Assembly (NCBI GenBank): GCA_944391715.1
Contig: CALXUP010000006.1
Coordinates: 1,895-65,894 of the forward strand
Source: an uncultured Alphaproteobacteria bacterium
GTDB lineage: Bacteria; Pseudomonadota; Alphaproteobacteria; RF32; CAG-239
Direction: 5' to 3'
DNA: 64,000 nt
Every line of letters begins with the position of its first letter. Position 1 is the first letter of the stretch. Shown piece by piece: positions 8,555 to 30,867 of this stretch. The translations under genes and the position numbers were made by a program. The notes under the pieces were generated by a model, which ran no database searches, was not told the origin of the DNA, and saw nothing but the letters and a program-made list of their open reading frames with translations.

Positions 8555-8796
8555 TTTTTGCCTCTCATTTTATTTTCACGAAAAATCAAATCTAATTTGA
8601 CTTCGATTTTGGTCAGGATTTTGTTTTGTTCGTTAATCGACGTGGTTAAATTCTCCAGGCGGATGTCCTGCTTGTCAAAATTTTGCTCAACCTTGTCGAC
8701 TCTGGTTTCAATATTTCCCTGCCAGCGTCCGATACGGATAAAATTGACAACAACGCCGCACAGTGCCGCCAGTCCGGCAACCAATCCCCAATCCAT
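8551..8796 (-). CDS. phage membrane protein with N-terminal TM helix and coiled-coil region (part of lysis cassette)
   Basis: RBS gaggag + ATG (MDWGLVAGLAALCGVVVNFI...) directly after a terminator hairpin. 81 aa; heptad-like VDKVEQNFDKQDIRLENLTTSINEQNKILTKIEV. Confidence 0.45.
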   Translation of the reverse strand: MDWGLVAGLAALCGVVVNFIRIGRWQGNIETRVDKVEQNFDKQDIRLENLTTSINEQNKILTKIEVKLDLIFRENKMRGKK

Positions 8797-8815
8797 GCTT
8801 TTTCTCCTCAAAAAA

Positions 8816-8834
8816 AGCGGGCTATGCGCCCGCT
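8816..8834 (-). terminator. rho-independent terminator (hairpin + T-run on minus strand)
   Basis: agcgggc-tatg-gcccgct stem-loop, followed on the minus strand by TTTTTTT. It overlaps the last codons of 8822..9202. Confidence 0.5.
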
Positions 8835-9202
8835 TCTCCTTCATTGCTTTCGGAAGTTTCTTCCGGTTTCGGATAGTCATCTTTTACCTTTTTTCTGGCC
8901 AGAAAAAAGGTTGACGTTTTTGCCTCTTCACCAAACAATCCGGCATTTATGTCATGATAGAGCTTATCAAGCTGTTCCGTTACGTCGGGATAGGCCTGTC
9001 GGCGTTCTTCCGCATAGTCATAGGGCTTTTCCGGCTCCTCGCCCTTGAAATACATTTTGCCGTTCCAGGCGGTGATGACTTCTCTTTCCGTCGGCTGTAT
9101 CGAATCCAAAACCAGACCGCAGGCAAAAGCCCCGTCCCGTACGGCTTCGGCATCGCTGCCGGAAAGTTTGATTTCATTATTAATTAATCCGATATAAATC
9201 AT
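8822..9202 (-). CDS. hypothetical phage protein (possibly tail-fibre assembly/chaperone)
   Basis: 126 aa, acidic C-terminus. Sits downstream of the tail fibre genes, the usual Tfa position. No diagnostic motif seen. Confidence 0.35.
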   Translation of the reverse strand: MIYIGLINNEIKLSGSDAEAVRDGAFACGLVLDSIQPTEREVITAWNGKMYFKGEEPEKPYDYAEERRQAYPDVTEQLDKLYHDINAGLFGEEAKTSTFFLARKKVKDDYPKPEETSESNEGEAGA

Positions 9203-12450: not shown

Positions 12451-13323
12451 TTAAGCTGCGGCCAGAGCATAGTTGACGTGCAGCAAGCCATATTCGTCCT
12501 GCATAACGGCTTCCGGGCGGTATTCCGCGACCTCTTGCGCAATCAGCCCGATTTGCGGAATATCTTCACCGATATAGTTGAACAAATATACGGTCAGGCC
12601 GTTATCCAATCTGCCGACCGGAATGATGTTTTCCTTCACTCTGGCATCAGAGAACATTGCCATGGCCGCTCCGCTCAGAAACTGATTACCCAGGGCATAT
12701 TGACCTGCCGAATTTGCAGCTTTGTTCTGAGCAATGCGAGAATCTGCCCCGAACTGGGCTTGATATTTTGCCAGGGCAACATCATCGCCGCTCATTGAAT
12801 TGGATATTAACTGCAAAATTTCGTTTACCGGATACTGCCGGGCGGCATTTGAGAAATTTCCGGCCCGAATAGAATCCGACAAGCTGTTGCTAAAAGCCTG
12901 TTGTCCTTGTAAAACGCTGTTATAAGCAGCCTGGTTCAGAGCATCATTCTGTTGCTGATACATTGAGTTCATGGCATTTTGATAAGCTTCGCTGCCTACG
13001 CTTAAGCCCTGATTTTGCAGACGGGTTTCCAGTTGGCGTTGCTGTTGCTCAAATTGCGGCGTCAACCTGCTGACATATGAATTATATGTTGCATTTTCTG
13101 CCCGCTGCCGGGCCGCATCCGAAGCATCTACCGAATAAACATAATCCGGCCGGCTGCTCAGCGTCTGCGATAAATTGTAGGCGCTTTGGTTCAAATTGTT
13201 GAGTGTATTGTCAACCAAAGACGTGTCTTTATTATTGAGATAATTCAGGTATTCCCGTTCGGAAGCGTACATCGACGTGCTGGCGCCGCCGCCCCCGAGC
13301 AGTTTTCCGATGCTTTTACTCAT
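12451..13323 (-). CDS. coiled-coil tail-needle/fibre-like protein with C-terminal peptidase S74 intramolecular chaperone domain
   Basis: 290 aa. Residues ~20-220 are Q/N/S-rich alpha-helical (coiled-coil-like). The C-terminus SDARVKENIIPVGRLDNGLTVYLFNYIGEDIPQIGLIAQEVAEYRPEAVMQDEYGLLHVNYALA matches the S74 auto-cleaving chaperone domain (SDxRxKxNI...GxIAQEV). The start has an in-frame TAA immediately upstream and a GGAG RBS. Confidence 0.7.
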   Translation of the reverse strand: MSKSIGKLLGGGGASTSMYASEREYLNYLNNKDTSLVDNTLNNLNQSAYNLSQTLSSRPDYVYSVDASDAARQRAENATYNSYVSRLTPQFEQQQRQLETRLQNQGLSVGSEAYQNAMNSMYQQQNDALNQAAYNSVLQGQQAFSNSLSDSIRAGNFSNAARQYPVNEILQLISNSMSGDDVALAKYQAQFGADSRIAQNKAANSAGQYALGNQFLSGAAMAMFSDARVKENIIPVGRLDNGLTVYLFNYIGEDIPQIGLIAQEVAEYRPEAVMQDEYGLLHVNYALAAA

Positions 13324-13429: not shown

Positions 13430-13726
13430 TTATTTTACTTCTTTATCACTGAAAACGGCAAGCGGTTTTAAGATTATTGTCAGCGGGATGACAAACAGAA
13501 ATGCCGTTTCTATACTATACGGAATAAGCAGAAAACGGGGATCGTATATATAGACGATTAAAAACGGCGTCGTTAAAATGGTCAGCGTTTTGTACAGCCT
13601 GGCCGAATCTGAAATAAAATATTGAAAAATCCGCTGCAGCATAAATATCAGCAACGTTGCTTCAAATAAAAAACTAATCAGCAGCCCAAAGCTCCAAAAA
13701 CTTGCTATTTCTTTAATTATCTGCAT
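13430..13726 (-). CDS. small 3-TM membrane protein (holin candidate)
   Basis: ~98 aa from MQIIKEIASFWSFGLLISFLFEATLLIFML...; three hydrophobic segments. AT-rich. Lies between the GH108 muramidase gene and the needle gene. Confidence 0.4.
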   Translation of the reverse strand: MQIIKEIASFWSFGLLISFLFEATLLIFMLQRIFQYFISDSARLYKTLTILTTPFLIVYIYDPRFLLIPYSIETAFLFVIPLTIILKPLAVFSDKEVK

Positions 13727-14104
13727 TTTTATCACTCTTTTTGTTGGCCGTAAAACGGAACATACTCGGAACAACCGCACCAACCACCCCGTACAAAAAA
13801 CCAAAAGAAAAAGTCGGGCTTAGGCAGCCGAAGATTATACCGCAGGTCAGTAATGAAAAAATGTTTGCTCAGACTTCCGGATTTTTTAATTTATACCGTT
13901 TTAAAATGTTCTGAAATATATGTACTAACAGTAATACCCAGATTATCCAGTGAATAATTGATGGCATGATTATCCCCTATTGCACTCATATTATTTCCTT
14001 ATAAAAATTTAATATCCAAACTATTATGACATTTGCATTTAATTAAACTTTTGCTGTTATTACATTAGAATAGTAGATTTTAGCAAGTTAATTTGAGGAT
14101 AAAA

Positions 14105-14554
14105 ATGAACAAAAATATCTTGCGTATTTTAGCGGTGTTACTTCTTCTTAATTGTTGTAACATGCAAGAAGAGAACAAAATTTTAAGTTACGGTGAAAAG
14201 CAAGCCGCTCAGATTAGTTTTCAATGTTGGGAAAAAGCTTTTGAAAACAATCCGACATCTACGACTGGCAATATTTCGGCTGGAATAAAAGCAAATGAGT
14301 GTATGGATCAACAGATATACCAGCTTCTTGATTCCGAATTTACTCAGGAAACGCAAGCAGCCATGACGGCAAGATATAATGCAATTCGTCAGCAGATTCT
14401 TGATTTTTATTGGGATTTAAGAAATGACAACAAATATTGCATTCCGTCTTGTGGCACAATGCAACAAATATTTAATCGCGGTGATTGGTTCAAATTTCAA
14501 GAAAAAATATTAGGTGCCTTGCTTGATTTACAAAAAAACCAAGATGCGTTCTAG
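14105..14554 (+). CDS. secreted/lipoprotein-like Cys-containing helical protein (possible DUF1311/LprI-like lysozyme-inhibitor fold; speculative)
   Basis: RBS gaggat; signal-like N-terminus MNKNILRILAVLLLLNCC. Six Cys. Opposite strand to all neighbouring phage genes. AT-rich. Confidence 0.45.
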   Translation: MNKNILRILAVLLLLNCCNMQEENKILSYGEKQAAQISFQCWEKAFENNPTSTTGNISAGIKANECMDQQIYQLLDSEFTQETQAAMTARYNAIRQQILDFYWDLRNDNKYCIPSCGTMQQIFNRGDWFKFQEKILGALLDLQKNQDAF

Positions 14555-14601
14555 ATAAAAAATTACTTCAAACGCATCTTGTATTAACTTTTTGATAAGC
14601 T

Positions 14602-15351
14602 TTATTCCATTCTTAATCTGTTGATTCTTGGAATTAGGCCTCTATAGTTTGGTCTTTTTTGTTTGGCCTCTTCAATTCTTTTTTCTAGAACATAATTATT
14701 AATCAAAGCAACTGTATTTTCATCAATATAATTTAAACTATTTATTGTTTGACTCCCCAAAATACCGTCTTCACTTACAGTATTATGACTATAAAGATTA
14801 ATCCCTTCTTGAAGCCATTTTGTAATATCCTTCGGACTATGATTGACATAGCTATCAAACATTGTTTCCGCCAACTTTTCATTTTGAATTTCATTTATTC
14901 GATATGCATCGTAGTAATCGTTTTTATAAATGATATCAATATGATGTTGAGTTAAATCTTTTATATCGTTAGGAAATGTCTCTCTATAGTGCGGATGAGC
15001 CCTTAAAAAACGATTTAACGTCGGCTGTATAATTCCAGTATGCGTCCTTTGATCTATTTTCGCTAAGTTATCTTCATATCCTATCCCTTCAACTTCTGGG
15101 CTCTTTAAATTTCTAACAAATTTTTCAAAACGAGAAGGAAAATATTCAGTGTTTCTTCTCTCTTGTGGTATGTATGATATATTTTGTTCTTGATATAATG
15201 ACTGTCCCCAGGCCGGTGTCGGTTCAATGTAAGATTGTTCATTTTTCCCGAATAGTTCAAAATAATTTACCTGCCGATCTTTGTTAAAATTGTTCTCAAT
15301 CGGCATTGGCTCATATTTACCACCAAGCAGTTTTCCGATGCTTTTACTCAT
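14602..15351 (-). CDS. GH108-family muramidase with C-terminal PG_binding_3-like domain (endolysin or virion-associated lysin) carrying a 70-aa N-terminal extension
   Basis: 249 aa. Residues ~75-235 follow the GH108/PG_binding_3 pattern: EVEGIGYEDN...THTGIIQPTL (cf. EGGYxxDPxDPGGxTxxGIT), IIYKNDYYDAYRINEI (cf. IYxxxYWD), MFDSYVNHSPKDITKWLQ (cf. FDxAVNxGxxxAxKxLQ), DGILGSQTINSLNYI (cf. DGxxGxxTxxAL). The first 11 aa are identical to the needle-like protein. Confidence 0.6.
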   Translation of the reverse strand: MSKSIGKLLGGKYEPMPIENNFNKDRQVNYFELFGKNEQSYIEPTPAWGQSLYQEQNISYIPQERRNTEYFPSRFEKFVRNLKSPEVEGIGYEDNLAKIDQRTHTGIIQPTLNRFLRAHPHYRETFPNDIKDLTQHHIDIIYKNDYYDAYRINEIQNEKLAETMFDSYVNHSPKDITKWLQEGINLYSHNTVSEDGILGSQTINSLNYIDENTVALINNYVLEKRIEEAKQKRPNYRGLIPRINRLRME

Positions 15352-15447: not shown

Positions 15448-15867
15448 TTACAAATAACGGCATTCCCTTTTTAACATACCGAAAAGAATGCAATCCCCGC
15501 CGTTTTCTCGATAAGCCCGCAATCTTCCTTCTTCGCGAAAGCCAAGCTTTCTGACAAAATTCAGGCAAGGCAGGTTATCGTCCGCGACCATCAGGCTTAT
15601 TCTTTGGCAATGCAAATCTTTAAAAGCGACGCCGAAAATGTATTTCAGCACCCTTTTGGTACACCAGCGTTTATCCGTGCTGAAGATTGTCCACCAGACA
15701 TCTGTATTTTTGCGGTAGTCATGAAAAATCAGTCCGCCGATCATTTTGCCGTTCCGGGAAAAACCGCAGGTATAATTTTCTCCGCACCATTGGGTATCTT
15801 CTCCCAAACCAAAGCAAACCCAGTCTTTAATGACGCCGCATTCATCGTGGATGATTTCCGTTTCCAT
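15448..15867 (-). CDS. GNAT-family N-acetyltransferase (RimJ/RimL-like)
   Basis: RBS aaggag + ATG (METEIIHDECG...). C-terminal acetyl-CoA-binding region KRVLKYIFGVAFKDLHCQRISLMVADDNLPCLNFVRKLGFREEGRLRAY is typical of GNAT. Confidence 0.7.
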   Translation of the reverse strand: METEIIHDECGVIKDWVCFGLGEDTQWCGENYTCGFSRNGKMIGGLIFHDYRKNTDVWWTIFSTDKRWCTKRVLKYIFGVAFKDLHCQRISLMVADDNLPCLNFVRKLGFREEGRLRAYRENGGDCILFGMLKRECRYL

Positions 15868-15880
15868 GGATTTTCTCCTT

Positions 15881-17440
15881 TTACAAGATACCGCTGCCGG
15901 ACTCGTAACGAAAACCGGTATCATACCATTCAATCAGGTTTCCCCTGGTTTTGGTCTGAAAAACAAGGCTGATTTTGAAGCCGGTTGCCGAACAGCCAAT
16001 CCACTGGCTGCGGATTTTTCCTTTCAGCGTTGCCCATTTGGTGCCGATCGGATTGTCCAGGCTGCTCCAGGCCGCAGTGTTCCATTTGGTCACACCGGAA
16101 TAACCGATATTTTCGGCATAGGCCTTATCTTTGTCATCAAAATCCACATTGGCATAAACAACCAACGCATATTTGGTGCTTGACTTTGTACGCGGATTAA
16201 TCATTTGAATTTTCTTCAAATTTCCATTACCGAGATTTGTATAGGCCTGAGCTATTTTGCCAAAGATATGGACTTTATTGTCCGAATAGCCTTCGTCAAA
16301 CAGATAGACGCCGTCTTCCCCGCCGAAATACAGGCGCCCCTGAAACAGCCCCCAGCACAAGGCGCGGATATTGGTAAAACGGCACCAGGCGCCGGTATTG
16401 GTATTGATAACGTGCTGTTCAAACTGCTGGTTGACCGGAACGTTAAACAAAGCATATCCGCCGCGGCCGTAGATAATCCCCTGCCAGCCCTCTTTTCCCT
16501 TGTTGTTTCTGGTTCTGTCCAGCACCAAGCCCCTGATTTTATCGGAAAAGGCAATCTGAGACGCATTGGCCTGTTCCAGCGGAAGCGCCTTTGACAGCGG
16601 AATATAACCGTCTTCCGAAATAATGACAACATCTCCCTGATAAGGCAAAAGGCAGCGATAGCCTATCGGACGGCTCATCCGAAAAACGCCTTTCAACTCC
16701 CAATCGCCGGCATCTCCGGGATCCGAACCGCGATAAACGGCCGCTTCGCCTTCCGACGTGATAAAAACCGTCAGATCGTCAATTCCCTGCCCGCCGTCCT
16801 GTGTCCAGGAGGCGATTGCCATAAGTTCTCCGCCGTCGCGAAAAATTGTTGAAAGGTCAAATTTGACCAAGGTTCCCTGCACTTCTCCCACACCCTCGGA
16901 ATACCAGGCATTGAGCGTGCCTTTCTCGACAAAGAAAAGCCGCTGGTGCGACGTACAAACGTTAATCAGCCGCTGCGGCAGCAAATTGGTGCCGGAAAAA
17001 GAGGCGTCTTCAAAATGTTCGTCGCCGTTGTCATCAACATAAAACGTCTGCGGCTTGTCATATCCGTTGACCAGCAGCAGACGATTTTTGAACTGGCAAT
17101 ACTGCCAGCGCCCTTCGCCGAAATCTTTTTTATAATCCTTTATGGCAGCCTTGGAAGAAATATTATAAACCGTGGAACCGGCAAAAGCCAAAAAGCGGTT
17201 TTCATCGGGCAATTTGTATTCCGCCAGCGTCCGGACTTTTCCATCCAGCGCCGCATAACGGACATAACCGCGGCGCAAAGCAACTTTGGTATCCAGCGGG
17301 AGATAATTGTCCATGACGACGGCATCGGTTTCTGACATCAAATCCAGGCTGTCGCGGGCGTTTAATCCGCCAATCGGGCTGGGCAGCGTGTAGTTGACCG
17401 ATTTGGCGCTGCGGTTAATTGTTCTTTGCTGCATTGACAT
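15881..17440 (-). CDS. large phage virion/tail protein (P22 gp10-like position)
   Basis: ~519 aa from MSMQQRTINRSAKSVNYTLPSPIGGLNARD with an aggag RBS. The longer ORF-track N-terminus lacks an RBS and overlaps the upstream gene. Assigned by position after the 237-aa protein. Confidence 0.5.
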   Translation of the reverse strand: MSMQQRTINRSAKSVNYTLPSPIGGLNARDSLDLMSETDAVVMDNYLPLDTKVALRRGYVRYAALDGKVRTLAEYKLPDENRFLAFAGSTVYNISSKAAIKDYKKDFGEGRWQYCQFKNRLLLVNGYDKPQTFYVDDNGDEHFEDASFSGTNLLPQRLINVCTSHQRLFFVEKGTLNAWYSEGVGEVQGTLVKFDLSTIFRDGGELMAIASWTQDGGQGIDDLTVFITSEGEAAVYRGSDPGDAGDWELKGVFRMSRPIGYRCLLPYQGDVVIISEDGYIPLSKALPLEQANASQIAFSDKIRGLVLDRTRNNKGKEGWQGIIYGRGGYALFNVPVNQQFEQHVINTNTGAWCRFTNIRALCWGLFQGRLYFGGEDGVYLFDEGYSDNKVHIFGKIAQAYTNLGNGNLKKIQMINPRTKSSTKYALVVYANVDFDDKDKAYAENIGYSGVTKWNTAAWSSLDNPIGTKWATLKGKIRSQWIGCSATGFKISLVFQTKTRGNLIEWYDTGFRYESGSGIL

Positions 17441-18128
17441 ATACTCCTTCTGCCGCCGGATTAAAAACCATACCGGCAAGGTTAATATCGCGGGAGGCCA
17501 GGCCGCTGCCGAATTTGGCTTTGACTTCGCGCTCGTATTCGTTAAATTCTTCTTCATACGGCATACCGTTGCGCCGGTTCCAGCGCCAGACAATGCCTTT
17601 TTTGACCAGAAATTCATCAAAAACAGGAACATCGGTATTTTTAGTCAGTTCGGATTTTTCCTCGTAGCCGTTTGCCGCATCAAACACAATGTTTGACGAG
17701 CGATACTGAAAAACAATCTTAATCCCGTCGGGCGGCGGCGTCAGAAATTTTATCATTCCGTTTTGGATTTTGAACTTCAGACCGGCATCGGGGCAGTTGA
17801 AATATTTTTCACGCATCCAATCCTGCGGGGTGATGGCGCCGATAACTTTTTCCGCGCTGTCTTTGATATAGACCGTATTATTCAATATAGAATAAAAATC
17901 GGGGCAAAACTGTTTGATAAGATAAGAACTACGGCCGCCGGAAGTGCGCAAAACGCCCTCCTTGGTCAGTTCCTGCCAATCGCCATAGCGCAACAGGCTG
18001 TCCAAAGTATCTTTGGCAACACTTAAAAATACAGCCTCCTGTTGAGAATCTTCATTAAACAAGTCTTCCGGCTTTTGAGCCGCAACAAGGCTTGCCGCCT
18101 CACGGCAGATTTCAAGCATATTCTTCAT
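17415..18128 (-). CDS. hypothetical phage virion protein
   Basis: 237 aa, GC-normal, within the morphogenesis operon. No motif recognised. Confidence 0.45.
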   Translation of the reverse strand: MKNMLEICREAASLVAAQKPEDLFNEDSQQEAVFLSVAKDTLDSLLRYGDWQELTKEGVLRTSGGRSSYLIKQFCPDFYSILNNTVYIKDSAEKVIGAITPQDWMREKYFNCPDAGLKFKIQNGMIKFLTPPPDGIKIVFQYRSSNIVFDAANGYEEKSELTKNTDVPVFDEFLVKKGIVWRWNRRNGMPYEEEFNEYEREVKAKFGSGLASRDINLAGMVFNPAAEGVYVNAAKNN

Positions 18129-18424
18129 GTTTTCTCCTTATTGGTTGTTATTTAATAAAAAAAGAACACCTGTTCAGGCTTGAACAGATGCTCGTTATAC
18201 AAAAAAACGCCGATATTACGGCGTAAGCTATTTTCTTTAGTTAAATTTTACTGATAATTTGTTTTTTATAAAAATTTAACTGCTACTTTCAAAAAAGACT
18301 TACAGTAAAAATAATTGTCCAATATAACATATAAAAAAATAGACTTAATGAAAATATATATCCAATGATTATTAATGTAAAATTTAAATAAACTAAAAAC
18401 TTATTCAAAGATCATTTCCTTTTA

Positions 18425-18640
18425 TTATAATTCTGACTTTATAACGGTGCAAAAAGTTATACAATAAATATAACCAAATAGAAGAATGCTTAATAGCAAT
18501 ATTCTAATAATGTATTTCCAATGACGAAAATAATTTATTGCTTTTATTTTATCAAAAAATTTAATAAGTAAACCTGAAGAATCTGTATCTTTAATACTAG
18601 ATTCTTCAAGTCGTTTTTGTTCTTTTTTTGTTTTTCTCAT
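18425..18640 (-). CDS. small tail-anchored membrane protein, KTKKEQ family (member 1)
   Basis: MRKTKKEQKRLEESS...AINYFRHWKYIIRILLLSILLFGYIYCITF. Basic N-terminus, C-terminal TM. AT-rich. Confidence 0.45.
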   Translation of the reverse strand: MRKTKKEQKRLEESSIKDTDSSGLLIKFFDKIKAINYFRHWKYIIRILLLSILLFGYIYCITFCTVIKSEL

Positions 18641-18644
18641 ATTA

Positions 18645-18920
18645 TCAAATATCCTTAACTGTATCAGCAAAAAGAAATACTAATATTAAAAGTTCAATGT
18701 ATGTCAGAAATAATGCAATTTCTACATTTTCTTGTTTTAAGAGCGACAATTTTTTCCCGAACAAAATGCATAAAAAACACCCTGACAGAAAAAATAATAA
18801 AGCTATACAAAGCCAATCCAAAAATAAATTTTCTTTTTGAACACCGATTATTCCCATAAAAAAGACAGGAACCGTCATTGTTAACAACATTGCCAACTGA
18901 TGAAAAAATTGTTTTATCAT
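18645..18920 (-). CDS. small multi-TM membrane protein (family 3, member 1)
   Basis: 91 aa. The C-terminus LLKQENVEIALFLTYIELLILVFLF is similar to that of 20704..20961. Confidence 0.45.
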   Translation of the reverse strand: MIKQFFHQLAMLLTMTVPVFFMGIIGVQKENLFLDWLCIALLFFLSGCFLCILFGKKLSLLKQENVEIALFLTYIELLILVFLFADTVKDI

Positions 18921-18921
18921 T

Positions 18922-19212
18922 TTACATCCCTCTCATAAGCGATGCGATTATTGGCAATCCAATAACCAAGGCAATAAAAAACAAAATCCAATCTATATAC
19001 AGAGCATATTGTATTATCTTGCGGTAAGGAATACCTAACGTGATATTAAAGAAGGCCAGAAATGCTAAGACAAATAAAATAATCTGTAATGCTATAAAAA
19101 CATATGGGGCATAATAACCTGAAAAACCTAACATTTCGCCTACTATAGACAAGGGCGCAATTGCAACCCATGCTGCGTAAACCCTGATAAAATTTTGTAT
19201 CCGTTCTTTCAT
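18922..19212 (-). CDS. small multi-TM membrane protein, MKERIQNFIRV family (member 1)
   Basis: 96 aa. The N-terminus MKERIQNFIRVYAAW is nearly identical to that of 20992..21270. Confidence 0.5.
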   Translation of the reverse strand: MKERIQNFIRVYAAWVAIAPLSIVGEMLGFSGYYAPYVFIALQIILFVLAFLAFFNITLGIPYRKIIQYALYIDWILFFIALVIGLPIIASLMRGM

Positions 19213-19223
19213 TCTCTTTTCCT

Positions 19224-19352
19224 TAAGAAATCATTTTGAGCAATAAACCAAACCATATTCCTCCTAAAACAAACATAGAGATAAGAAACGTCGGCACTAT
19301 TGCTGCATATAAAACAACTAAAATAACAAACTGAAAATACTTATGTTTCATC
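19224..19352 (-). CDS. 42-aa hydrophobic peptide, translationally coupled (TGATG) to the upstream gene
   Basis: MKHKYFQFVILVVLYAAIVPTFLISMFVLGGIWFGLLLKMIS. Start overlaps the stop of 19352..19500. Confidence 0.3.
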
Positions 19353-19500
19353 AGATTAGCCCCAAAATGATATTACCCCAAAGCAGAAGACTGAATAAAA
19401 ACATCCACAAAAGCCAAATAAAGTGCTTTTTATAATCAATATTATCTACCAAGTTATTAACTTCAGATAGTTTATCTTTCAATTTTTGATTTTTCTTCAT
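19352..19500 (-). CDS. small tail-anchored membrane protein, IDYKKH family (short member)
   Basis: MKKNQKLKDKLSEVNNLVDNIDYKKHFIWLLWMFLFSLLLWGNIILGLI. ATGA overlap with the upstream gene. Shares the NIDYKKHF motif with 20045..20233 and 20428..20640. Confidence 0.4.
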
Positions 19501-19664
19501 AACAGAAACTCCATTACCTGCATTTCTATTTTAGTTAAAATAACGAAGCCTATAATAAAGATAGAACTCGTCATAAAAAACACAGCCAGAGGAGCAAGAA
19601 ATAAGTATCCTGCCCCAATCATAATTAATTGTATAAAAGAAGACACTGTTTTTAATTTTGACAT
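19497..19664 (-). CDS. 55-aa 2-TM membrane peptide, translationally coupled
   Basis: MSKLKTVSSFIQLIMIGAGYLFLAPLAVFFMTSSIFIIGFVILTKIEMQVMEFLL. Stop overlaps the ATG of the next gene (ATGA). Confidence 0.3.
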   Translation of the reverse strand: MSKLKTVSSFIQLIMIGAGYLFLAPLAVFFMTSSIFIIGFVILTKIEMQVMEFLL

Positions 19665-19673
19665 TTTCGAACC

Positions 19674-19889
19674 TTACCAATCTAATGAAGAAAAAAAGAA
19701 ACACACTGCAAATATAAATACAAAGAACAATAAGATGTCTAATAAAAATAATTTCCAGAGTCTTTCACCTTGCTTTTTGTAATCAAGCTTATTAACTTTT
19801 TCTATCAGCTTAGACCAGCAGTTAGAAGAAGTTAAAAATTTTTCATTAACTTCTTCCGGACACATTTGTTCTTTTTTTGTTTTCCTCAT
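19674..19889 (-). CDS. small tail-anchored membrane protein, KTKKEQ family (member 2)
   Basis: RBS aagga + ATG giving MRKTKKEQMCPEEVNEKF...KLDYKKQGERLWKLFLLDILLFFVFIFAVCFFF. The longer ORF-track N-terminus is hydrophobic and lacks an RBS. Confidence 0.45.
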   Translation of the reverse strand: MRKTKKEQMCPEEVNEKFLTSSNCWSKLIEKVNKLDYKKQGERLWKLFLLDILLFFVFIFAVCFFFSSLDW

Positions 19890-20044
19890 ATTAAATCCTT
19901 CCCGTCCAATCATTCTTACATATTTAATATTCCGTTTGTTACCATTGAGGCCATAGCTGCAAAATACATAAAAAATATAATTGAAGAGATATAACCAATT
20001 AACAATAAAATAAATTTTATAATCACACTCATAATCATCACTTT

Positions 20045-20233
20045 TCAAAGTATATATAAAAAGGTACCAATTGAATAAATAGCCAAAATTATTCCAAGGA
20101 TAAAAATTACTTTAATAATTTTCCAATGTTTTTTATAATCGATACTATTAATGAAATTATAAAAGCGGGAGAAAGCTGTTGTTTGCACGACAACTTCTCC
20201 CTCTTTCTTTTGTTCTTTTTTTGTTTTCACCAT
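20045..20233 (-). CDS. small tail-anchored membrane protein, KTKKEQ family (member 3)
   Basis: MVKTKKEQKKEGEVVVQTTAFSRFYNFINSIDYKKHWK + TM. About 80 bp of DNA (20150-20230) is identical to 20555-20640. Confidence 0.5.
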   Translation of the reverse strand: MVKTKKEQKKEGEVVVQTTAFSRFYNFINSIDYKKHWKIIKVIFILGIILAIYSIGTFLYIL

Positions 20234-20427
20234 ATTATCAAATATCCTTTATTTTTCAAATTTTATTCTTTTTTTTATTTTCAAAAGATACAATCATACA
20301 ATAAAACAGTTAATGACACTAACAAAAAAAGAGTTAAAGGAAATAATATGATATAAGAAAACGACAACAAAAAGAAGCGCATGAGCAAGAAGTATGTTTT
20401 TGAATTTTTCATATATATTCCTTTTTG

Positions 20428-20640
20428 TTAACTTAACCCATCAAAAGCATTTCCTGTCATAACAACAAAAGTTATTGTTAGAACGATGAAAAGAGTTATG
20501 TCTGCCAAAATCAACCAGCAAACATATTTAAAGTGTTTTTTATAATCGATGTTATTAATAAAATTATAAAAGCGGGAGAAAGCTGTTGTTTGCACGACAA
20601 CTTCTCCCTCTTTCTTTTGTTCTTTTTTTGTTTTCATCAT
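20428..20640 (-). CDS. small tail-anchored membrane protein, KTKKEQ family (member 4)
   Basis: MMKTKKEQKKEGEVVVQTTAFSRFYNFINNIDYKKHFKY + TM. Its first 35 aa are nearly identical to member 3. Confidence 0.5.
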   Translation of the reverse strand: MMKTKKEQKKEGEVVVQTTAFSRFYNFINNIDYKKHFKYVCWLILADITLFIVLTITFVVMTGNAFDGLS

Positions 20641-20703
20641 ATCATCAAATATCCTTTATTTTTCAGATACTTTGACAATATTAGATTTTTTTATATTTGT
20701 CTA

Positions 20704-20961
20704 CTAAAAAGGTACAAGGGCACCTAAAATAAATATTTCAGGAAACAAGAGGAAAAGTGCTAACTCTGTGTATTCTTGTTTGACATACGGAAGAGAAACC
20801 CCCACCAGCACTAAGAAAATGCTTATTGCCCATATCCAGCCTAAAATGACGGCCAAAAACATTATCGTTCCTATTCCCCCAAAAAGACCAATGAATAACA
20901 AAAAAAATAACGAGGGAAACATACCACACAAAAACATTAAATTCCAAAAACGTTCTTTCAT
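20704..20961 (-). CDS. small multi-TM membrane protein (family 3, member 2; MKER-like start)
   Basis: 85 aa. MKERFWNLMF... C-terminus YVKQEYTELALFLLFPEIFIL resembles that of 18645..18920. Confidence 0.45.
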   Translation of the reverse strand: MKERFWNLMFLCGMFPSLFFLLFIGLFGGIGTIMFLAVILGWIWAISIFLVLVGVSLPYVKQEYTELALFLLFPEIFILGALVPF

Positions 20962-20991
20962 TATCTTTTCTCTTTCTATTTTGCCTGAATA

Positions 20992-21270
20992 TCATTTCAA
21001 CATCATATTGTTCAACATTTCGATCCCAAATATTATAGTATCAACAACTATCCCCCAACGCACAATTTGAGCATAAGGAATTTTGAATGTTATTTTGAAG
21101 AATGCGAAAATTGCTAACACTAAAGCTATGGGAATGGATAAAAAAGGTGCTCCCCAAACTATTACAGCCCACTCATATTCTATTACCCACCGAAGCATAA
21201 AAAATAGAAAAATATCTACAACCATAAAGGCTGCAAATACTCTGATGAAATTTTGTATCCGTTCTTTCAT
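20992..21270 (-). CDS. small multi-TM membrane protein, MKERIQNFIRV family (member 2)
   Basis: 92 aa. MKERIQNFIRVFAAFMVVD... is a paralogue of 18922..19212. Confidence 0.5.
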   Translation of the reverse strand: MKERIQNFIRVFAAFMVVDIFLFFMLRWVIEYEWAVIVWGAPFLSIPIALVLAIFAFFKITFKIPYAQIVRWGIVVDTIIFGIEMLNNMMLK

Positions 21271-21334
21271 TTATAAGCTATCCTTTCATATTTTGAAAGG
21301 ATAGCTTATATTTTTTATTTTTTCAACTTAAATT

Positions 21335-22159
21335 TTATCTTTTTTTAAGAATACGACTACAATCATATCCATTTCTCCCTAAATCTCTACCAATTTCATT
21401 GTTAGTTAAATCTTTCCAGCTGTCAGCCAACACACCGAATGTTCCTCCATATTGATTTTTTAGCTTCTTGTTTGTAATCTTTTTATATATATCATCTCCT
21501 TCTTTTGCATATCCTAGACCTGTTACAGTAATTGGCATACCATTAGACGCACCAAAACATGAAACATATTGATGTTTTTTATCATCACCAAGGTTCATTA
21601 CCCCTACTCTTTTAGCCTCTTTAGCCAAATTCGTAACATTTTGTATATAGGTCTGATTAGGTGAAATAACATTAGGAACATCTGTATAAGGATCATAGGT
21701 GCGATAATCTACCACTCCTTCTCCTATTTTTTCTCCTATTTCTTCTCCTGTTTTATACAAAGTTTCTCCTATGTTATATACCGTCTGAGCACCGCCATAT
21801 ACCGGATAAAACGCAGTATTTCCAATATTAGGCATGGCCTGAGTAACAGCATTTTTCAGGGGAAAGCCGGATTTTTGTTTAGACGCAAAGCCTTTTTGAA
21901 AAGCGGCGTTGGCAATTTCAGGACTTAAGACCGAAGTCTGTGCCGACACTTGTTGAGGCTGTTGCGGTGCATCAGGCTGAGCCGCAAACGACTGTGCCTG
22001 CGGCTGATATGGCGTCTGTTGCCAGTTTGGAGCAGATGTGTTGTACGGGGTTTGGTTTTGGGCCTGATATTGGGGCGAATATGATATTTCTTCTTGTTGT
22101 CTGCGCCAGTTTTTGGCCCAGTTATTCAACTTGTCTTCAAGAAGTTTATTGGTTGGCAT
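21335..22159 (-). CDS. phage virion protein with Q/P-rich N-terminal region and Cys-containing C-terminal globular domain (internal/ejection protein or lysin candidate)
   Basis: 274 aa. N-terminus QYQAQNQTPYNTSAPNWQQTPYQPQAQSFAAQPDAPQQPQQ. C-terminus ...HQYVSCFGASNGMPITVTGLGYAKEGDD...DLGRNGYDCSRIL. Function not recognised. Confidence 0.45.
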   Translation of the reverse strand: MPTNKLLEDKLNNWAKNWRRQQEEISYSPQYQAQNQTPYNTSAPNWQQTPYQPQAQSFAAQPDAPQQPQQVSAQTSVLSPEIANAAFQKGFASKQKSGFPLKNAVTQAMPNIGNTAFYPVYGGAQTVYNIGETLYKTGEEIGEKIGEGVVDYRTYDPYTDVPNVISPNQTYIQNVTNLAKEAKRVGVMNLGDDKKHQYVSCFGASNGMPITVTGLGYAKEGDDIYKKITNKKLKNQYGGTFGVLADSWKDLTNNEIGRDLGRNGYDCSRILKKR

Positions 22160-22160
22160 T

Positions 22161-22730
22161 TTATTTCTCCTTTGTTTTAGCGGTTTCGGTTGATTTTTTC
22201 AACTGTGCCTGCAGTTGTTCGACTTTGTTTTGCAGCTGTGCTATTGTCTGCCGGTATTTTTCTTCCTGTTTTTGCCAGGAAGAAATTTCGGAGTTATGAG
22301 CAGAAGCGGCCAGAAACTTCTGTGCCAATTCCCGCTCCCTTCCGATTTCCAGCTGAACGGCCTTTTCTTCATCCAGCTCAGCCAGCGCTTCGACGGTGAA
22401 GATTCCGCGGATTTTCAAACTCTCTATTTCTCCGGCCGTCAAAAAGGCAAACTGCTCAAGCGGCGTTCCCTCTTTTATCTGCTTTTTCATCAGCTGATAG
22501 CGGGCGTAGGCCGCCGGGAAACGCTCGATTTTCTCTTTGGTTGCCGGCTGGTCATAAACCTCCGACGGATTATCCTTAATCCGGATTTCGACAAAACAGA
22601 CATTTTTAAAGACCGGAAAACCATCTTTGGTCACTTCTTCCGTTTTAACCGAACGGTCATAAAAACGGGCGACAATACCGTCTTCCGGATTGGTGTTTTG
22701 AGCGATTTTATCAAATAATCCAAAATCCAT
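22161..22730 (-). CDS. hypothetical phage head-completion/virion protein
   Basis: ~189 aa from MDFGLFDKIAQ, with RBS ggaaagga; the upstream ORF-track Met lacks an RBS. Coiled-coil C-terminus. Lies immediately after the capsid gene. Confidence 0.45.
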   Translation of the reverse strand: MDFGLFDKIAQNTNPEDGIVARFYDRSVKTEEVTKDGFPVFKNVCFVEIRIKDNPSEVYDQPATKEKIERFPAAYARYQLMKKQIKEGTPLEQFAFLTAGEIESLKIRGIFTVEALAELDEEKAVQLEIGRERELAQKFLAASAHNSEISSWQKQEEKYRQTIAQLQNKVEQLQAQLKKSTETAKTKEK

Positions 22731-22805
22731 TTGTATTCCTTTCCGTTGGTGCAAAAATGAAGGAGGAGCCATAACAGCCCCTCCCGTTGTGTTTTTGTTT
22801 TTATA

Positions 22806-26160: not shown

Positions 26161-26350
26161 ATTATATTGTTCTTAGATTGTTCTGAGAGACCAGAAAGTG
26201 GTTGGTCACATATAAGAGTAATTTTATATTAGAGGATAATGGAACACGCGCCCATCCAGAGCAATTTAGAAAAGCCTGAATATGACGATATTCTTGTTTT
26301 TCCAGAGCCGGGATATGACGATATCCCGGCTCTGTTTTTTATTCCGTCTC
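26161..26350. repeat. direct repeat R1 flanking the secreted-protein moron (contains terminator-like palindromes)
   Basis: Shares with 27090-27250 the blocks ttgttct(t/c)agattgttctgag, gcgcg..ccatccag.gcaatttagaaaagcc and the perfect palindrome gagccgggatatgacgatatcccggctc. Confidence 0.55.
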
Positions 26351-26995
26351 TATCCAAAAATTTTCAGAAGTGACCGGCGTAAACTCTTTTTTATCCAAAA
26401 AGAAAGTTCTATTATACACTTTCCAATCAGCTCTCATATCATCACCGTCCCAATTATAATGGATATCAAGCAACGGATTTGACAGATGAGTTAAATCAAA
26501 TTGTACGGAAGTTATCATTCTGCCATTATTGAGGCTTACTGCTTCCAGCGCATCAATAATGACTTTGTTATTCATTTTAACGGTCAGGTAAAATTGCTGA
26601 TAAATACCAGCGCTCCCTTCACCGGAAAGAAATTGATATTTATCTCCTATTTTATAATTTTTTTTCGGATTAAGCGCGTTTATCTGTACCTCAAATATCC
26701 TATTATCAATTTTGCAGGAAGCATTATAGCTCTTTTGCCACAATATTTTGTCATTATTATCAAGCTTATAAAGCGCCTGTAAATTATATAATCCGTATTT
26801 TTGAATATAATCCGCAGATTGTGTCAGTAATTTTTCCTGCAGGTCTTCACTGGTACGTGGATGTTCTACCGTCATATACAGGCTTTTTAGTTCCGGCCGG
26901 CACTGAATGCGCAAAAAATCATTCCAGAAATCTGCCTTGGCAGAATTGCAGCATAATATTCCAACAAGTCCTATTAAGACAACATATTTTTTCAT
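26339..26995 (-). CDS. secreted protein (signal peptide), AT-rich moron
   Basis: RBS aaggagag + ATG. MKKYVVLIGLVGILCCNSAKA then a hydrophilic N/K/Y-rich domain of ~195 aa. Confidence 0.55.
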   Translation of the reverse strand: MKKYVVLIGLVGILCCNSAKADFWNDFLRIQCRPELKSLYMTVEHPRTSEDLQEKLLTQSADYIQKYGLYNLQALYKLDNNDKILWQKSYNASCKIDNRIFEVQINALNPKKNYKIGDKYQFLSGEGSAGIYQQFYLTVKMNNKVIIDALEAVSLNNGRMITSVQFDLTHLSNPLLDIHYNWDGDDMRADWKVYNRTFFLDKKEFTPVTSENFWIETE

Positions 26996-27089
26996 GCTCT
27001 CTCCTTTGATAATAATAGTAATTATAATAATTGAACACAATAATTTTACAAGCAATAATTTAATCTTTCGTGCTTGACTTTCTTAAGAC

Positions 27090-27301: not shown

Positions 27302-29221
27302 TCAGAATTCTTTTACAAATCCGGAAGAGATATTTCCGGGGTTGTCAGAGAAAGGCGCCAAAGCGGCATTTTTCTCCGGCATTTTTTCAAGCTGGGCGGT
27401 TTTCAACCTTGCCTGCATTTCCATTTCTTTATTGGTCATATAGAGTTTGTTTTGCTCAACCCACTCTTTTAACTGCAATTCGCGGGCTTTTAAGTTGTTT
27501 TTCTCCCGTTCCAGCTGATATTGCGCCGCGGCTTTTTCCCGCTCCAGAGTCAGAGCCTCGTTCGGCTTTTGCGGCAGAGTTTCGTCCGGCTTATTCAGCT
27601 CCCGTTCAATATCGTTAAAAACTTTTTCAACCGTTGCCGTAAACTGGCGGGATTTCGGCATTGTTACCACAACAGACATTATCATCTGGCGGTACAACGG
27701 CAACAGCAGCGGCTGGCTTGATACGGTTTGAAAAGCTTTTGCAATCAGCTCATTTATGGTGTTTATGCCTTCCAGCGTTTTTGCGGCTTCCTGCGCCTGC
27801 TGAAAAGCAACGTCGGTTTCCACACCCAGCACCATACCGCGCAAGTTGTCGGTTTTTAACAGCCGGACGGCATCTTTGGCCAGCGCCGTATTTTGCCGTT
27901 CTTCCGGCGGCAAAAATCCCAGCAGCGTTTCTTCCGAAAAACAACGGCAGATAATTTCCGCCTTAATCCTGAACACATCCCCGATAAAGCGCTGCATATC
28001 ATTTTGGCGATCCTGATTGCGCAAAGTGCCGAAATTGGTCTTTTCACGGACGGCCGTTGCCGTATCGCCGGGATTGGAGCTACCGCGCATAATATCCGAT
28101 ACGCCGGTTACATCAAAAATCTTGGCAATAATATCCTGTCTTCTGGCCGCCAGTTGTTCCAGAGCCGTTACATACTGCTCAACCGGAACAAAGTCTATAA
28201 TCCCGCGAATGCCGCCATTGTCTTTGAGTTTTTGAAAATCATTGAGCGATACAAGCGTTATGTCCTTATTCAGGATGCTCTTTAACTCGGGAAAAGAATT
28301 GTCATAACAGCCGGAGACTTTCAGCGCTTTCATCGTCAAGCGCATCCGGTTGTTGATGCCGTCCAGCTCAGAAAGCATTTCTTTAATCATCGAATAGTCC
28401 GGCGTCGGGATAATGCTGTTATTGGTCATGGTGGCAAAAACCGGTTTCGGACACGGGAAAAAGCCTTTCAGCCCGAAAGGATCGTTTGCGACTTTTAAAA
28501 ATCCGTTTTTATATTCTTTACAGAGCCAATAGACTTTTCGCGCCGTCTTGTCCCAGACTTCATAAATACAAACGTCTTTTTTGGCATAGTCTTTTTCATC
28601 GGGGCGGATTATAAACGGCGCCAGATGTTCGCCGAACAATTCAACCGCTTCCGTCTTGCCCATATGAATCCTTTTGGCAATCCAGGCTGCGTCTTCCCAA
28701 ATGCCGACTCTATCACAATCGGCAATAAAATCGGCCGGATCGACATAAACGGTTTCTACCCTTTCTCCGACTTTGACCTCAATTTCTTTTTCGGGATTTT
28801 CGCTGTCCGGCAAGCTCCGGAACTCCGGAATATACTGCTCCCAGACAAGCCCCATGCCTGATATCAGAAAATCGTTGCGGGCATATTTTAATACGCTGTC
28901 AAAATCAAATTGTTCCATATTCCAGGCCAGTGCCTTTTCCAAAATCCGGCAAGCCAGTGTTTCTGCCGGATCGGCGTTTTTGTTGCGGCGTTCAATGTAG
29001 GGCTTGGGCTGCTTGAAATATAAAAAGGGTTTTAACGTTTCGACCGTCGACCAAAAGATATTGTAACGGCCGGCACGGGCTATGTCAGAAGTTTGGTCTT
29101 TATAATAATTTCTGGTTTCGGCCACCAGGCGGTGGTATTTTTCATAATGCCGTTCCGCCGCGGACAGCCGCTCTATCCAGGTTTCGACTTCGTTTTTATA
29201 TACGGGGATTATATTATTCAT
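27302..29221 (-). CDS. portal protein
   Basis: 639 aa. Sits immediately after the terminase/GroES-like genes and before the scaffold and capsid genes. Size and acidic-helical C-terminus are typical of podovirus portals. Confidence 0.65.
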   Translation of the reverse strand: MNNIIPVYKNEVETWIERLSAAERHYEKYHRLVAETRNYYKDQTSDIARAGRYNIFWSTVETLKPFLYFKQPKPYIERRNKNADPAETLACRILEKALAWNMEQFDFDSVLKYARNDFLISGMGLVWEQYIPEFRSLPDSENPEKEIEVKVGERVETVYVDPADFIADCDRVGIWEDAAWIAKRIHMGKTEAVELFGEHLAPFIIRPDEKDYAKKDVCIYEVWDKTARKVYWLCKEYKNGFLKVANDPFGLKGFFPCPKPVFATMTNNSIIPTPDYSMIKEMLSELDGINNRMRLTMKALKVSGCYDNSFPELKSILNKDITLVSLNDFQKLKDNGGIRGIIDFVPVEQYVTALEQLAARRQDIIAKIFDVTGVSDIMRGSSNPGDTATAVREKTNFGTLRNQDRQNDMQRFIGDVFRIKAEIICRCFSEETLLGFLPPEERQNTALAKDAVRLLKTDNLRGMVLGVETDVAFQQAQEAAKTLEGINTINELIAKAFQTVSSQPLLLPLYRQMIMSVVVTMPKSRQFTATVEKVFNDIERELNKPDETLPQKPNEALTLEREKAAAQYQLEREKNNLKARELQLKEWVEQNKLYMTNKEMEMQARLKTAQLEKMPEKNAALAPFSDNPGNISSGFVKEF

Positions 29222-29474
29222 CTGTTATTACTCCTAAAATGCTGTTTTCCCGAACGACAACGACATCAGAATCATATGTCGGCAATTCATCAAAAACATG
29301 AAACAAAACTTTGTCTCCCGGTTTGACGCCGGAAACCTGCGGCCCGACGCTTTCGACCGTTCCAATCGTCCGCCGGTGCTCAAAATCGTCGGTCAGGATT
29401 ATTCCGCCGGTTGTTTGTTTTTCGACCGGTTTCAGGCGGATAAAAACCCGGTCCATGACGGCATGTGCAATCAT
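29214..29474 (-). CDS. phage-encoded GroES/Cpn10-like co-chaperonin
   Basis: 86 aa from MIAHAVMDRVFIRLKPVEKQTTGGIILTDDFEHRRTIGTVESVGPQVSGVKPGDKVLFHVFDELPTYDSDVVVVRENSILGVITDE. This aligns with the GroES pattern (DRVLVKR..EEKTAGGIVLP...GxVVAVGPG...VKVGDKVLF......ILxxDIL.VI). RBS ggagaaac. Confidence 0.6.
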   Translation of the reverse strand: MIAHAVMDRVFIRLKPVEKQTTGGIILTDDFEHRRTIGTVESVGPQVSGVKPGDKVLFHVFDELPTYDSDVVVVRENSILGVITDE

Positions 29475-29480
29475 GAAGTT

Positions 29481-29575
29481 TCTCCTTATCTTGTTTGGGG
29501 TTATAAAAAAATCCCGCCGGGAAAATTGCACAGCGGGATAAGCAAAAGTATTGAAGCTATTTTTCGGGAGCTTTA
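29481..29575. repeat. direct repeat D1 (copy of the terminase-downstream terminator+RBS region)
   Basis: ~95 bp nearly identical to 30906-30999: tctccttatcttgtttggggttataaaaaaatcccgccgggaaaattgcacagcgggataagcaaaagtattgaagctattttt. Confidence 0.6.
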
Positions 29576-29599
29576 CATAAACGGCGGACAATAAGCTGT

Positions 29600-30282: not shown

Positions 30283-30867
30283 ATGTTAAGTGTATTAAAA
30301 GACGCTATTGTTTTATTTCTGAGAAAAATAGACATTTTTATTGTATTTATTACACCGGTATTTTTAATAAATATTTTTCTCTTGCCCTCATCGATAAAAA
30401 TCCTGCTTAATGCCTTTGCTTATTGTATAACGTCTTTAAGTATATATCTTTATCTTTTGCATAACGATCTTTGTTTACGCTTTTTCTCTTTTCGGTTGTT
30501 TTTCTCTTATTTTTTGGCAGATTCTGCCATTGCCGCCGGTTATTTTATTTTGGTTTTTATTATTCAATTAATACCAATTTCCACAATCTGGCAGGTTTTA
30601 TGCGTCTATCTGCTAGGCTTATATTTTCTATGTCGCTTAAGTTTAATTCCGGCCTTGATTGCCGCTCAAAAAACGATATCGATACAAGATATTTTATTCA
30701 AAAACAAAAACAGTTATTTTCAATGGATGTCAGCGGCCACGGTTCTCTATCTTCCGTTTTTTCTGAGCAGGGTATTTATTCCTGAGGGAATTTCTCTTGC
30801 TTTTATAACATCATTACAAACTCCACTTTTATGTTGTTTTTATGTTTGTTATCTTAAAAAGCATTAA
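30283..30867 (+). CDS. polytopic membrane protein, AT-rich moron (divergent from 29600..30094)
   Basis: 194 aa, 5-6 TM, on the strand opposite the phage operon. Shares a 190 bp AT-rich intergenic region with its divergent partner. Confidence 0.5.
   Translation: MLSVLKDAIVLFLRKIDIFIVFITPVFLINIFLLPSSIKILLNAFAYCITSLSIYLYLLHNDLCLRFFSFRLFFSYFLADSAIAAGYFILVFIIQLIPISTIWQVLCVYLLGLYFLCRLSLIPALIAAQKTISIQDILFKNKNSYFQWMSAATVLYLPFFLSRVFIPEGISLAFITSLQTPLLCCFYVCYLKKH

Follow-up and report, generated by a model that had tools for sequence, protein, structure and literature searches.

The window analyzed here, a 64,000-nucleotide stretch of contig CALXUP010000006.1 from an uncultured gut alphaproteobacterium (RF32; CAG-239), holds an Mx8-like prophage with genes for a portal, tail proteins, a large terminase and a CI-type repressor, and with a major capsid protein that shares 46% identity with its Mx8 counterpart. 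This study concerns a block of the prophage at 18129..22160, in which a gene for a 274-residue protein, here called TOX, is followed by 14 genes for membrane proteins of 39 to 96 residues and by two intrinsic terminators, all on the minus strand, which is the phage strand. Read along that strand, the order is TOX, fam1a-fam3a, fam2a-fam4a, fam2b-fam4b, fam2c-fam4c, fam2d-fam4d, fam1b-fam3b, fam2e-fam4e, the two terminators and then a tail gene, where fam1 to fam4 denote the four families of small proteins.

A low-GC block is inserted into an Mx8-like prophage

The region 18129..22160 is an insertion into the prophage. We compared it with 80 related loci from uncultured Alphaproteobacteria that live in the gut of humans, mice and ruminants. 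In about 70 of these, homologues of the two flanking genes, 22161..22772 and the tail gene 17415..18128, were separated by a gap of at most 184 bp, and in MT835830.1 the two genes overlap. The insert was limited to a clade in which the tail protein shares at least 91% identity with that of the window, and there it measures 2.2 to 4.0 kb with a G+C content (GC) of about 0.30. A single mouse-gut metagenome-assembled genome (MAG), MGBC133411, contains two related prophages (L013 and L015, on contigs 4 and 19), one with an insert encoding a serum amyloid A (SAA)-like protein and a tail protein 92% identical to the window's, the other without the insert and with a tail protein 82% identical.

The array of small genes stands out by its composition, with a GC of 0.29 in 18425..21270 versus 0.49 to 0.50 in the phage genes on either side, close to the 28% and 48% estimated in an earlier, sequence-only reading of this DNA. 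Of the stretch 18289..21270, 95% lies within open reading frames (ORFs) of at least 39 codons on the phage strand, versus 24% ± 9% (maximum, 54%) in random sequences produced by a first-order Markov model matched in dinucleotide frequency. A Shine-Dalgarno-like motif precedes each of the small ORFs. Two junctions overlap (ATGA and TGATG), as the sequence-only reading had pointed out in arguing for translational coupling, and three others are separated by only 1 to 4 nucleotides. That reading had put the number of small genes at about 12; we counted 14.

Most small genes, compared with their orthologues in the related loci, gave a pairwise ratio of nonsynonymous to synonymous substitution rates (dN/dS) of about 0.2 to 0.3, with dS up to 0.5, and their reading frames and ribosome-binding sites were kept across these loci. 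Because of this dN/dS, the small ORFs are genuine, conserved protein-coding genes under purifying selection. The very short proteins and the biased composition could suggest chance reading frames in AT-rich noncoding DNA, an explanation that is effectively refuted by the one-strand ORF coverage, the selection at appreciable dS and the conserved frames and ribosome-binding sites, and to which we give practically no credence.

The small proteins form four families arranged in two-gene modules

The three paralogue families named in the sequence-only reading were recovered. The two fam1 proteins are 36% identical and the two fam3 proteins 31% identical, while fam2 has five genes, whose products were described as tail-anchored with a basic N terminus; topology prediction agreed, giving a single C-terminal transmembrane (TM) helix followed by 0 to 4 residues, and an N-terminal part of 25 to 42 residues with 7 to 11 lysines or arginines. 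The roughly 80 bp of identical DNA reported for the fam2 genes at 20045 and 20428 correspond to a 76-nucleotide identical run within 142 nucleotides at 94% identity. A fourth family, fam4, comprises five ORFs of 39 to 55 residues, each predicted to form a 2-TM hairpin with an invariant tyrosine, and each fam4 gene lies directly 3' of a fam2 gene. These are the ORFs that the sequence-only reading had left unassigned. Instead of the duplicated fam1-fam3-fam2 unit proposed there, the array is better read as seven two-gene modules of two kinds, namely, two of fam1 plus fam3 and five of fam2 plus fam4.

The first module (module A) consists of fam1a (20992..21270; 92 residues, about three TM helices, dN/dS of 0.20 to 0.25) and fam3a (20704..20961; 85 residues, three to four TM helices, a KQE..E..L motif, dN/dS of 0.13 to 0.31). 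Module B follows with the tail-anchored fam2a (20428..20640; 70 residues) and the hairpin protein fam4a (20281..20412; 43 residues). The next modules, likewise made of a tail-anchored protein and a 2-TM hairpin, are fam2b (20045..20233; 62 residues) with fam4b (19916..20041; 41 residues, GTG start with an ATG one codon further), fam2c (19674..19889; 71 residues, dN/dS of 0.3 to 1.1) with fam4c (19497..19664; 55 residues, dN/dS of 0.08 to 0.2), and fam2d (19351..19500; 49 residues, its start overlapping the fam4c stop in ATGA) with fam4d (19223..19351; 42 residues, joined to fam2d by the TGATG overlap). A second module A is formed by fam1b (18922..19212; 96 residues) and fam3b (18645..18920; 91 residues), and the array ends with the tail-anchored fam2e (18425..18640; 71 residues) and fam4e (18289..18408; 39 residues, a hydrophobic hairpin with a TTG start), the latter conserved at 94 to 100% nucleotide identity in related loci.

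A soluble part is present only in fam2, where it is predicted to be cytoplasmic, and all 14 proteins are otherwise almost wholly embedded in the membrane. Searches of the small proteins against Pfam, PHROGs, PADLOC and NCBIfam returned only sub-threshold noise. Homologues amounted to 30 clusters for fam2 and 9 for fam1 among 5.8 billion proteins, and to 3 representatives for fam3 among 1.84 billion proteins; all four families count as ORFans, limited to this clade of phages. Mosaic fam2 proteins, together with truncated 5' ends of fam1 and fam2 genes, or deletion scars, at the array borders, show that the modules have been reshuffled by recombination at the conserved gene starts.

TOX carries an exchangeable SAA-like C-terminal domain

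TOX (21335..22159; minus strand) starts 1 nucleotide past the stop codon of the upstream head-module gene. It had been taken for a virion gene lying outside the array but is an SAA-like polymorphic protein and part of the same inserted block. In an AlphaFold2 model, an N-terminal helix (residues 5 to 26) is followed by a disordered linker of about 55 residues rich in glutamine and proline (27 to 79), a helical pretoxin region and a C-terminal SAA-like bundle at about residues 167 to 270, and within the gene the stretch for the N-terminal part has a GC of 0.47, that for the C-terminal part one of only 0.33. Full-length TOX had no match in Pfam (E up to 0.01), PHROG, NCBIfam or PADLOC, and scans of IMG/VR and the JGI metagenomes for the toxin gave none either.

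TOX homologues formed 17 clusters, all on the same kind of contig. They have residues 1 to about 114 in common and then split into two types of C-terminal end, that of the window (type A) and one to which we refer as Pfam-SAA type, since most of the homologues' C-terminal domains match Pfam SAA (PF00277) at 39 to 47 bits, above the gathering cutoff of 30.8. The window's toxin end matched a Pfam-SAA-type domain in BLASTP (E = 4e-5), a search of the PDB with the family profile found no chains other than SAA (E = 3e-4), and the best Foldseek match of the AlphaFold2 model of the toxin end in the PDB was mouse SAA3, with a probability of 0.99. SAA is a major acute-phase protein of vertebrates whose biochemical function is debated.

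Burroughs, Nicastro and Aravind (eLife 2025; PMC12419801) assign SAA to the Lipocone superfamily, which also includes the lipid II-cleaving toxin TelC, and predict that the prokaryotic SAA (prok-SAA) domains cut lipid head groups. The helical bundle modeled for the window's toxin end has the four- to five-helix cone fold of this group. The Lipocone active site consists of a histidine in helix H2, an acidic residue in H3, an aspartate in H4 and an sNxxGR motif (PMC12419801). Residues D192, K195, H196, K219, E220, D223 and D250 of TOX are invariant across the types of C-terminal domain, and the window's domain also has N253-N254-E-I-G257-R258; the invariant D..KH, KE..D and D, like the N..GR of the window, sit at the positions of that active site. 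Judged by sequence and predicted structure, the toxin end appears to be homologous to SAA, as a divergent subtype of prok-SAA within the Lipocone superfamily, and by this homology it is predicted to cleave lipid head groups.

Toxin ends are linked to small-gene modules, and one was exchanged with its module

We classed the genes of 18 insert-bearing loci with family hidden Markov models. Window-type ends were followed by fam1 plus fam3 in 7/7 distinct cases, including an orphan end in L091, and Pfam-SAA-type ends by fam2 plus fam4 in 7/7, including orphan ends in L003 and L004, giving 14 distinct pairs of toxin-end type and next-gene type with zero exceptions at the class level, although these loci are closely related and the counts are not independent. 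The orphan toxin ends in L003, L004 and L091 lack the N-terminal region. Several genes that stand within the array of the window adjoin a toxin end in other loci: the fam2a gene type lies directly 3' of a Pfam-SAA-type end in L006, L011 and L014, a fam2e variant directly 3' of a Pfam-SAA-type toxin gene in L003 and L004, and a variant of fam1b, an orphan in the window, directly 3' of a toxin gene in L090 and L094. Six of the seven modules in the window have no adjoining toxin end.

The window and L006 are collinear and 98% identical on both sides of a replacement whose breakpoint lies at about 21819. In the window, the replaced segment is an exchangeable cassette of 1108 bp (20711..21818; minus strand) that contains the type A toxin end, from about residue 115, the hairpin described below, fam1a and fam3a. 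At the same site, L006 has 457 bp with a Pfam-SAA-type end directly before the shared fam2a. Given this clean swap between 98%-identical flanks, fam1 and fam3 travel with the toxin end as a unit, and fam2a plus fam4a of the window are the remnant of a previous pairing with a toxin end.

SAA-like genes with membrane-protein partners recur in more distant prophages

More distant prophages of the same hosts have no insert at this site and carry SAA-like genes at other positions. In a prophage of a yak-rumen MAG (L077, 16451..19552), three alternative C-terminal domains stand behind a shared region ..LSPTVQNALNLA.. : a classical SAA end (SAA-B) followed by a 78-residue protein with a TM helix and four cysteines, a window-type end (SAA-A) followed by a 160-residue polytopic protein, and a GH108 muramidase end whose adjoining gene, read from the opposite strand, specifies a small secreted protein. 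L019 and L075 also have a window-type end followed by the 160-residue polytopic protein. Standalone SAA-like genes lie just after the portal gene or just before the terminase gene in L031 (5136..6717), L038 (4401..6816) and L017 (18..1037), and are followed by one or two genes for proteins with 1 to 4 TM helices and a cysteine-rich C-terminal domain. In L038, two genes have a common N terminus, MQDNRYKNMWGED..EQKKRREWLRQVYD, and differing C-terminal parts, while the standalone genes of L031 and L017 have other N termini.

The partners with TM helices and a cysteine-rich domain in L077, L031, L038 and L017 have the layout of a TM segment plus Imm-SAA, as judged by architecture only. We also considered whether fam1 and fam3 represent a split form of the 160-residue polytopic protein of L077, L019 and L075, and rejected this, since profile comparison showed no relation. 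The pairs in these six loci indicate that SAA-like effectors with adjoining membrane proteins are recurrent cargo of such prophages, with partner families that vary.

Signals for transcription and translation in the block

The inserted block is closed, just upstream of the tail gene, by two tandem intrinsic terminators (18207..18224 and 18164..18193; minus strand), which were kept in all insert-bearing loci and the second of which shows a compensatory change in its stem in L014. Terminators closing an insert are the usual layout of a moron. A 17-bp perfect hairpin (21272..21310; minus strand; folding energy, -23.6 kcal/mol) lies between TOX and fam1a, with the fam1a Shine-Dalgarno sequence in its 3' arm, and is identical in all type A loci; it may have a regulatory role. 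In this leader and in that at 20641..20703, folding can pair the Shine-Dalgarno or start region of the small gene that comes first, and both contain weak pairs of promoter-like hexamers (TTGAAA-17-TATCCT and TAGACA-17-TATTGT) with the -10 element inside the 5' arm. Transcripts starting there would lose the 5' arm and free the ribosome-binding site, which read-through late transcripts would occlude. Promoter-like hexamers were not enriched in the two leaders, with 24 found versus 19 expected from shuffled sequences. We infer expression of the block in the lysogen from the terminators and the moron-like layout, the promoter scan having shown no enrichment.

Other features of the prophage

A second low-GC island (13430..15351; GC, 0.29 to 0.35) encodes a 249-residue protein with a GH108 muramidase domain (14602..15351; minus strand), which begins with the same 11 residues, MSKSIGKLLGG, as the next virion protein (12451..13323). 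It also encodes a 124-residue multi-TM protein (13430..13804) and, on the opposite strand, a 153-residue protein with a lipoprotein-type signal (14093..14554). The island looks like a second pair of envelope-directed effector and inhibitor, inserted into the 5' end of the virion gene.

A likely lysis cassette lies at the prophage end (8072..8880) and comprises a 109-residue protein with one TM helix (8551..8880), a 101-residue TM protein (8214..8519) and a 76-residue lipobox (LSSC) protein (8072..8302), the gene of which overlaps that of the 101-residue protein in a spanin-pair-like arrangement. Two other genes are conserved in related prophages, one for a GroES/Cpn10-like protein (29214..29591), immediately upstream of the portal gene, and one for a GNAT acetyltransferase (15448..15933), inside the tail module. 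Further low-GC islands at 30283..30867, 33190..34002 and 26339..27055 (GC, 0.30 to 0.36), one of them on the opposite strand, may be additional morons; their ORFs had no match in Pfam, and the ORF at 26339..27055 had none in PHROGs.

Discussion

We propose, with moderate confidence, that the block, carried as a moron by the prophage, is a polymorphic toxin locus equipped with immunity modules, both cognate and orphan. The definition of a polymorphic toxin system is said to go back to Zhang, Aravind and colleagues in 2012. Among the hallmarks of such systems, a shared N terminus with alternative ends is present here, with a breakpoint at about 21819, and so are linked small downstream genes as candidate immunity genes and orphan cassettes of toxin ends and modules. 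TOX would be the effector, with a constant N-terminal region, a disordered linker and an exchangeable SAA-like end, and, once delivered, would be toxic by cutting phosphate-linked head groups of envelope lipids, for example, lipid II or undecaprenyl-linked carriers. The 14 small genes would form two-gene membrane immunity modules, fam1 plus fam3 for window-type ends and fam2 plus fam4 for Pfam-SAA-type ends. According to this proposal, fam1a and fam3a would be the cognate module of the resident toxin, while the other six modules would be orphans from earlier cassette swaps that shield the lysogen from the variant toxins of related phages. Since the candidate immunity proteins are almost entirely membrane embedded, blocking of the toxin would probably occur within the inner membrane or at it. 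The sequence-only reading, whose options for function are partly supported as a whole, had considered a toxin-immunity-like system, and this option fits the evidence; what it had missed was the toxin candidate, encoded directly upstream.

Several observations weigh against this proposal. The class-level linkage comes from closely related loci, and within each class no fine covariation between toxin end and next gene was detected (r = -0.07 and 0.29), while identical toxin ends adjoin modules just 39 to 59% identical; because of this, the linkage does not demonstrate a specific cognate pairing. The window's own toxin end had no match to Pfam SAA at E up to 10, and the GR of the sNxxGR motif is missing in some window-type variants. 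TOX has no signal peptide and no recognized trafficking or secretion domain, MuF included. In PMC12419801, no prok-SAA domain is reported to be experimentally toxic, the activity being a prediction. Finally, the predicted cytoplasmic location of the soluble part of fam2 fits poorly with the periplasmic action implied by the cysteine-rich partners of the SAA-like genes in the more distant prophages.

The general kind of system is known from comparative genomics, both as polymorphic toxins of temperate phages and as prok-SAA tips with membrane immunity proteins; a literature search on SAA together with prophage, toxin and immunity found nothing beyond the Lipocone paper (PMC12419801). What is new here is the non-MuF N terminus, the divergent toxin-end subtype, four ORFan microprotein families, their two-gene modules and the seven-module array. 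In PMC12419801, prok-SAA domains form the toxin tip of polymorphic toxins deployed via type VI secretion systems, RHS or phage MuF proteins, and the immunity proteins that go with them, mostly Imm-SAA or Imm-BamE, are without exception TM proteins or lipoproteins, with Imm-SAA combining a TM segment and an extracytoplasmic domain of alpha plus four beta elements with four conserved cysteines. TOX resembles these toxins in its exchangeable SAA-homologous C-terminal end, in the kept His, Asp and sNxxGR and in the membrane proteins encoded downstream, and phage-linked MuF-prok-SAA versions have already been catalogued. It differs in that its N terminus is not linked to MuF, RHS or type VI secretion, that its toxin end has diverged into a subtype that Pfam does not detect, and that the downstream genes are four families of 39- to 96-residue microproteins in seven two-gene modules instead of Imm-SAA or Imm-BamE. 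Families fam1 to fam4 have neither conserved cysteines nor a soluble extracytoplasmic domain, and the Imm-SAA architecture is thus absent from them.

The MuF toxins of Jamet et al. (BMC Biol 2017; PMC5576092) likewise are encoded in the morphogenesis module of temperate phages, have a variable C-terminal domain and are followed by small ORFs proposed as immunity genes. Unlike them, TOX lacks a MuF (Phage_Mu_F) domain, precedes a long orphan array, has the envelope as its predicted target and comes from a Gram-negative alphaproteobacterium, whereas MuF toxins are found mostly in Firmicutes. A precedent for the small proteins is offered by BmiA and PmiA, small integral-membrane proteins with 3 to 4 TM helices that confer immunity to lipid II-cleaving ColM toxins within or at the inner membrane (Ghequire et al. 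2017; PMC5277000). There too, a lipid-linked cell wall precursor is attacked, as predicted here, the gene for the small 3- to 4-TM immunity protein lies directly 3' of the toxin gene and on its strand, orphan copies of such genes exist and promiscuous protection is possible; the toxin fold, however, is ColM and not SAA-like, no sequence relation between the two sets of immunity proteins was seen or looked for, and colicins have defined receptor-binding and translocation domains. According to PMC12419801, TelC of Streptococcus intermedius is the sole experimentally characterized Lipocone toxin; in the account given there of Whitney et al. (2017), it acts outside the cytoplasm by cleaving lipid II and is neutralized at the membrane or periplasmic side, similar to what we propose, but it belongs to another Lipocone clade, is delivered by a type VII secretion system and has a single immunity protein, TipC, with a soluble domain. 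Bxa is also a prophage polymorphic toxin of a gut bacterium with two immunity genes per toxin, differing in its ADP-ribosyltransferase activity, its soluble immunity proteins and an unrelated N-terminal domain.

The same parts may serve a different biology. TOX could be packaged into the virion through its constant N terminus and ejected into the envelope upon infection, where its lipid-cleaving end would aid genome entry, with the small membrane proteins of the lysogen blocking entry of related phages and an arms race driving the polymorphism. We regard such superinfection exclusion as unlikely; it may be seen as a variant of the immunity idea, and the present data do not separate the two. 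It would account for the place of the TOX gene within the operon for head-tail morphogenesis, where its translation is coupled to that of the head-module gene before it, for the lack of a secretion signal in TOX and for the two terminators, typical of a prophage-expressed moron, and it is in keeping with the proposal that MuF toxins travel in capsids and with the second island, where a muramidase bearing the first 11 residues of a virion protein is paired with a lipoprotein gene on the opposite strand. Phage T4 provides a precedent with Imm and Sp, two small proteins of the membrane that act against DNA entry and against the tail lysozyme. Nothing, however, places TOX in virions, the gene is absent from most related phages, which therefore enter cells without it, and the standalone SAA-like genes of L031 and L017 have other N termini. 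Should this rather doubtful scenario hold, a virion-borne, envelope-attacking SAA-like entry effector would face stacks of microproteins that exclude a panel of related phages; the two-part units of tail-anchored, hairpin and 3-TM proteins of 39 to 96 residues would be the smallest known immunity determinants, the phage-versus-phage arms race would run on the logic of polymorphic toxins, and there would be an experimental handle on the ancestral activity of the SAA fold.

The membrane proteins might instead be moron cargo with another role, such as anti-defense, modulation of the host membrane or exclusion of unrelated phages, piled up at a recombination hot spot beside the SAA-like gene. The restriction of four ORFan families to this phage clade, the missing fine covariation with the toxin end and the absence of matches to known families would agree with this, but the perfect class-level linkage, the joint transfer of the toxin end with fam1 and fam3 as a single cassette and the membrane proteins found 3' of SAA-like genes in distant phages make it improbable. 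The abortive-infection system contemplated in the sequence-only reading found no support as a known system, PADLOC models giving no match to TOX and nine of the small proteins at E up to 0.1. Its holin/antiholin option is related to a scheme of lysis control, in which TOX would cut lipid II from the inside late in infection and speed lysis, with the small proteins acting as holin-, antiholin- or timer-like regulators. TOX without an export signal in a late operon, the predicted cytoplasmic soluble part of fam2 and hairpins that could reduce protection late, by covering the first small gene's ribosome-binding site on read-through transcripts, could be fitted to such a scheme. We nevertheless consider it very improbable: no holin family of Pfam or PHROG was matched, the prophage has a cassette of its own with holin- and spanin-like features (8072..8880) and a muramidase gene at another site (14602..15351), about 70 related phages lyse without the block, and seven modules, orphan ends and cassette swaps are ill-suited to a lysis timer.

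Read as a polymorphic toxin locus, the block would be a compact natural test system, with two short toxin-end subtypes that each have a tiny candidate immunity module. The natural swaps in near-identical phage backgrounds and the orphan modules could reveal the rules of specificity. More broadly, prophages of little-studied gut Alphaproteobacteria carry predicted envelope-directed toxin cargo at several positions, which bears on competition between gut strains and on how microproteins may neutralize an enzyme acting at the membrane.

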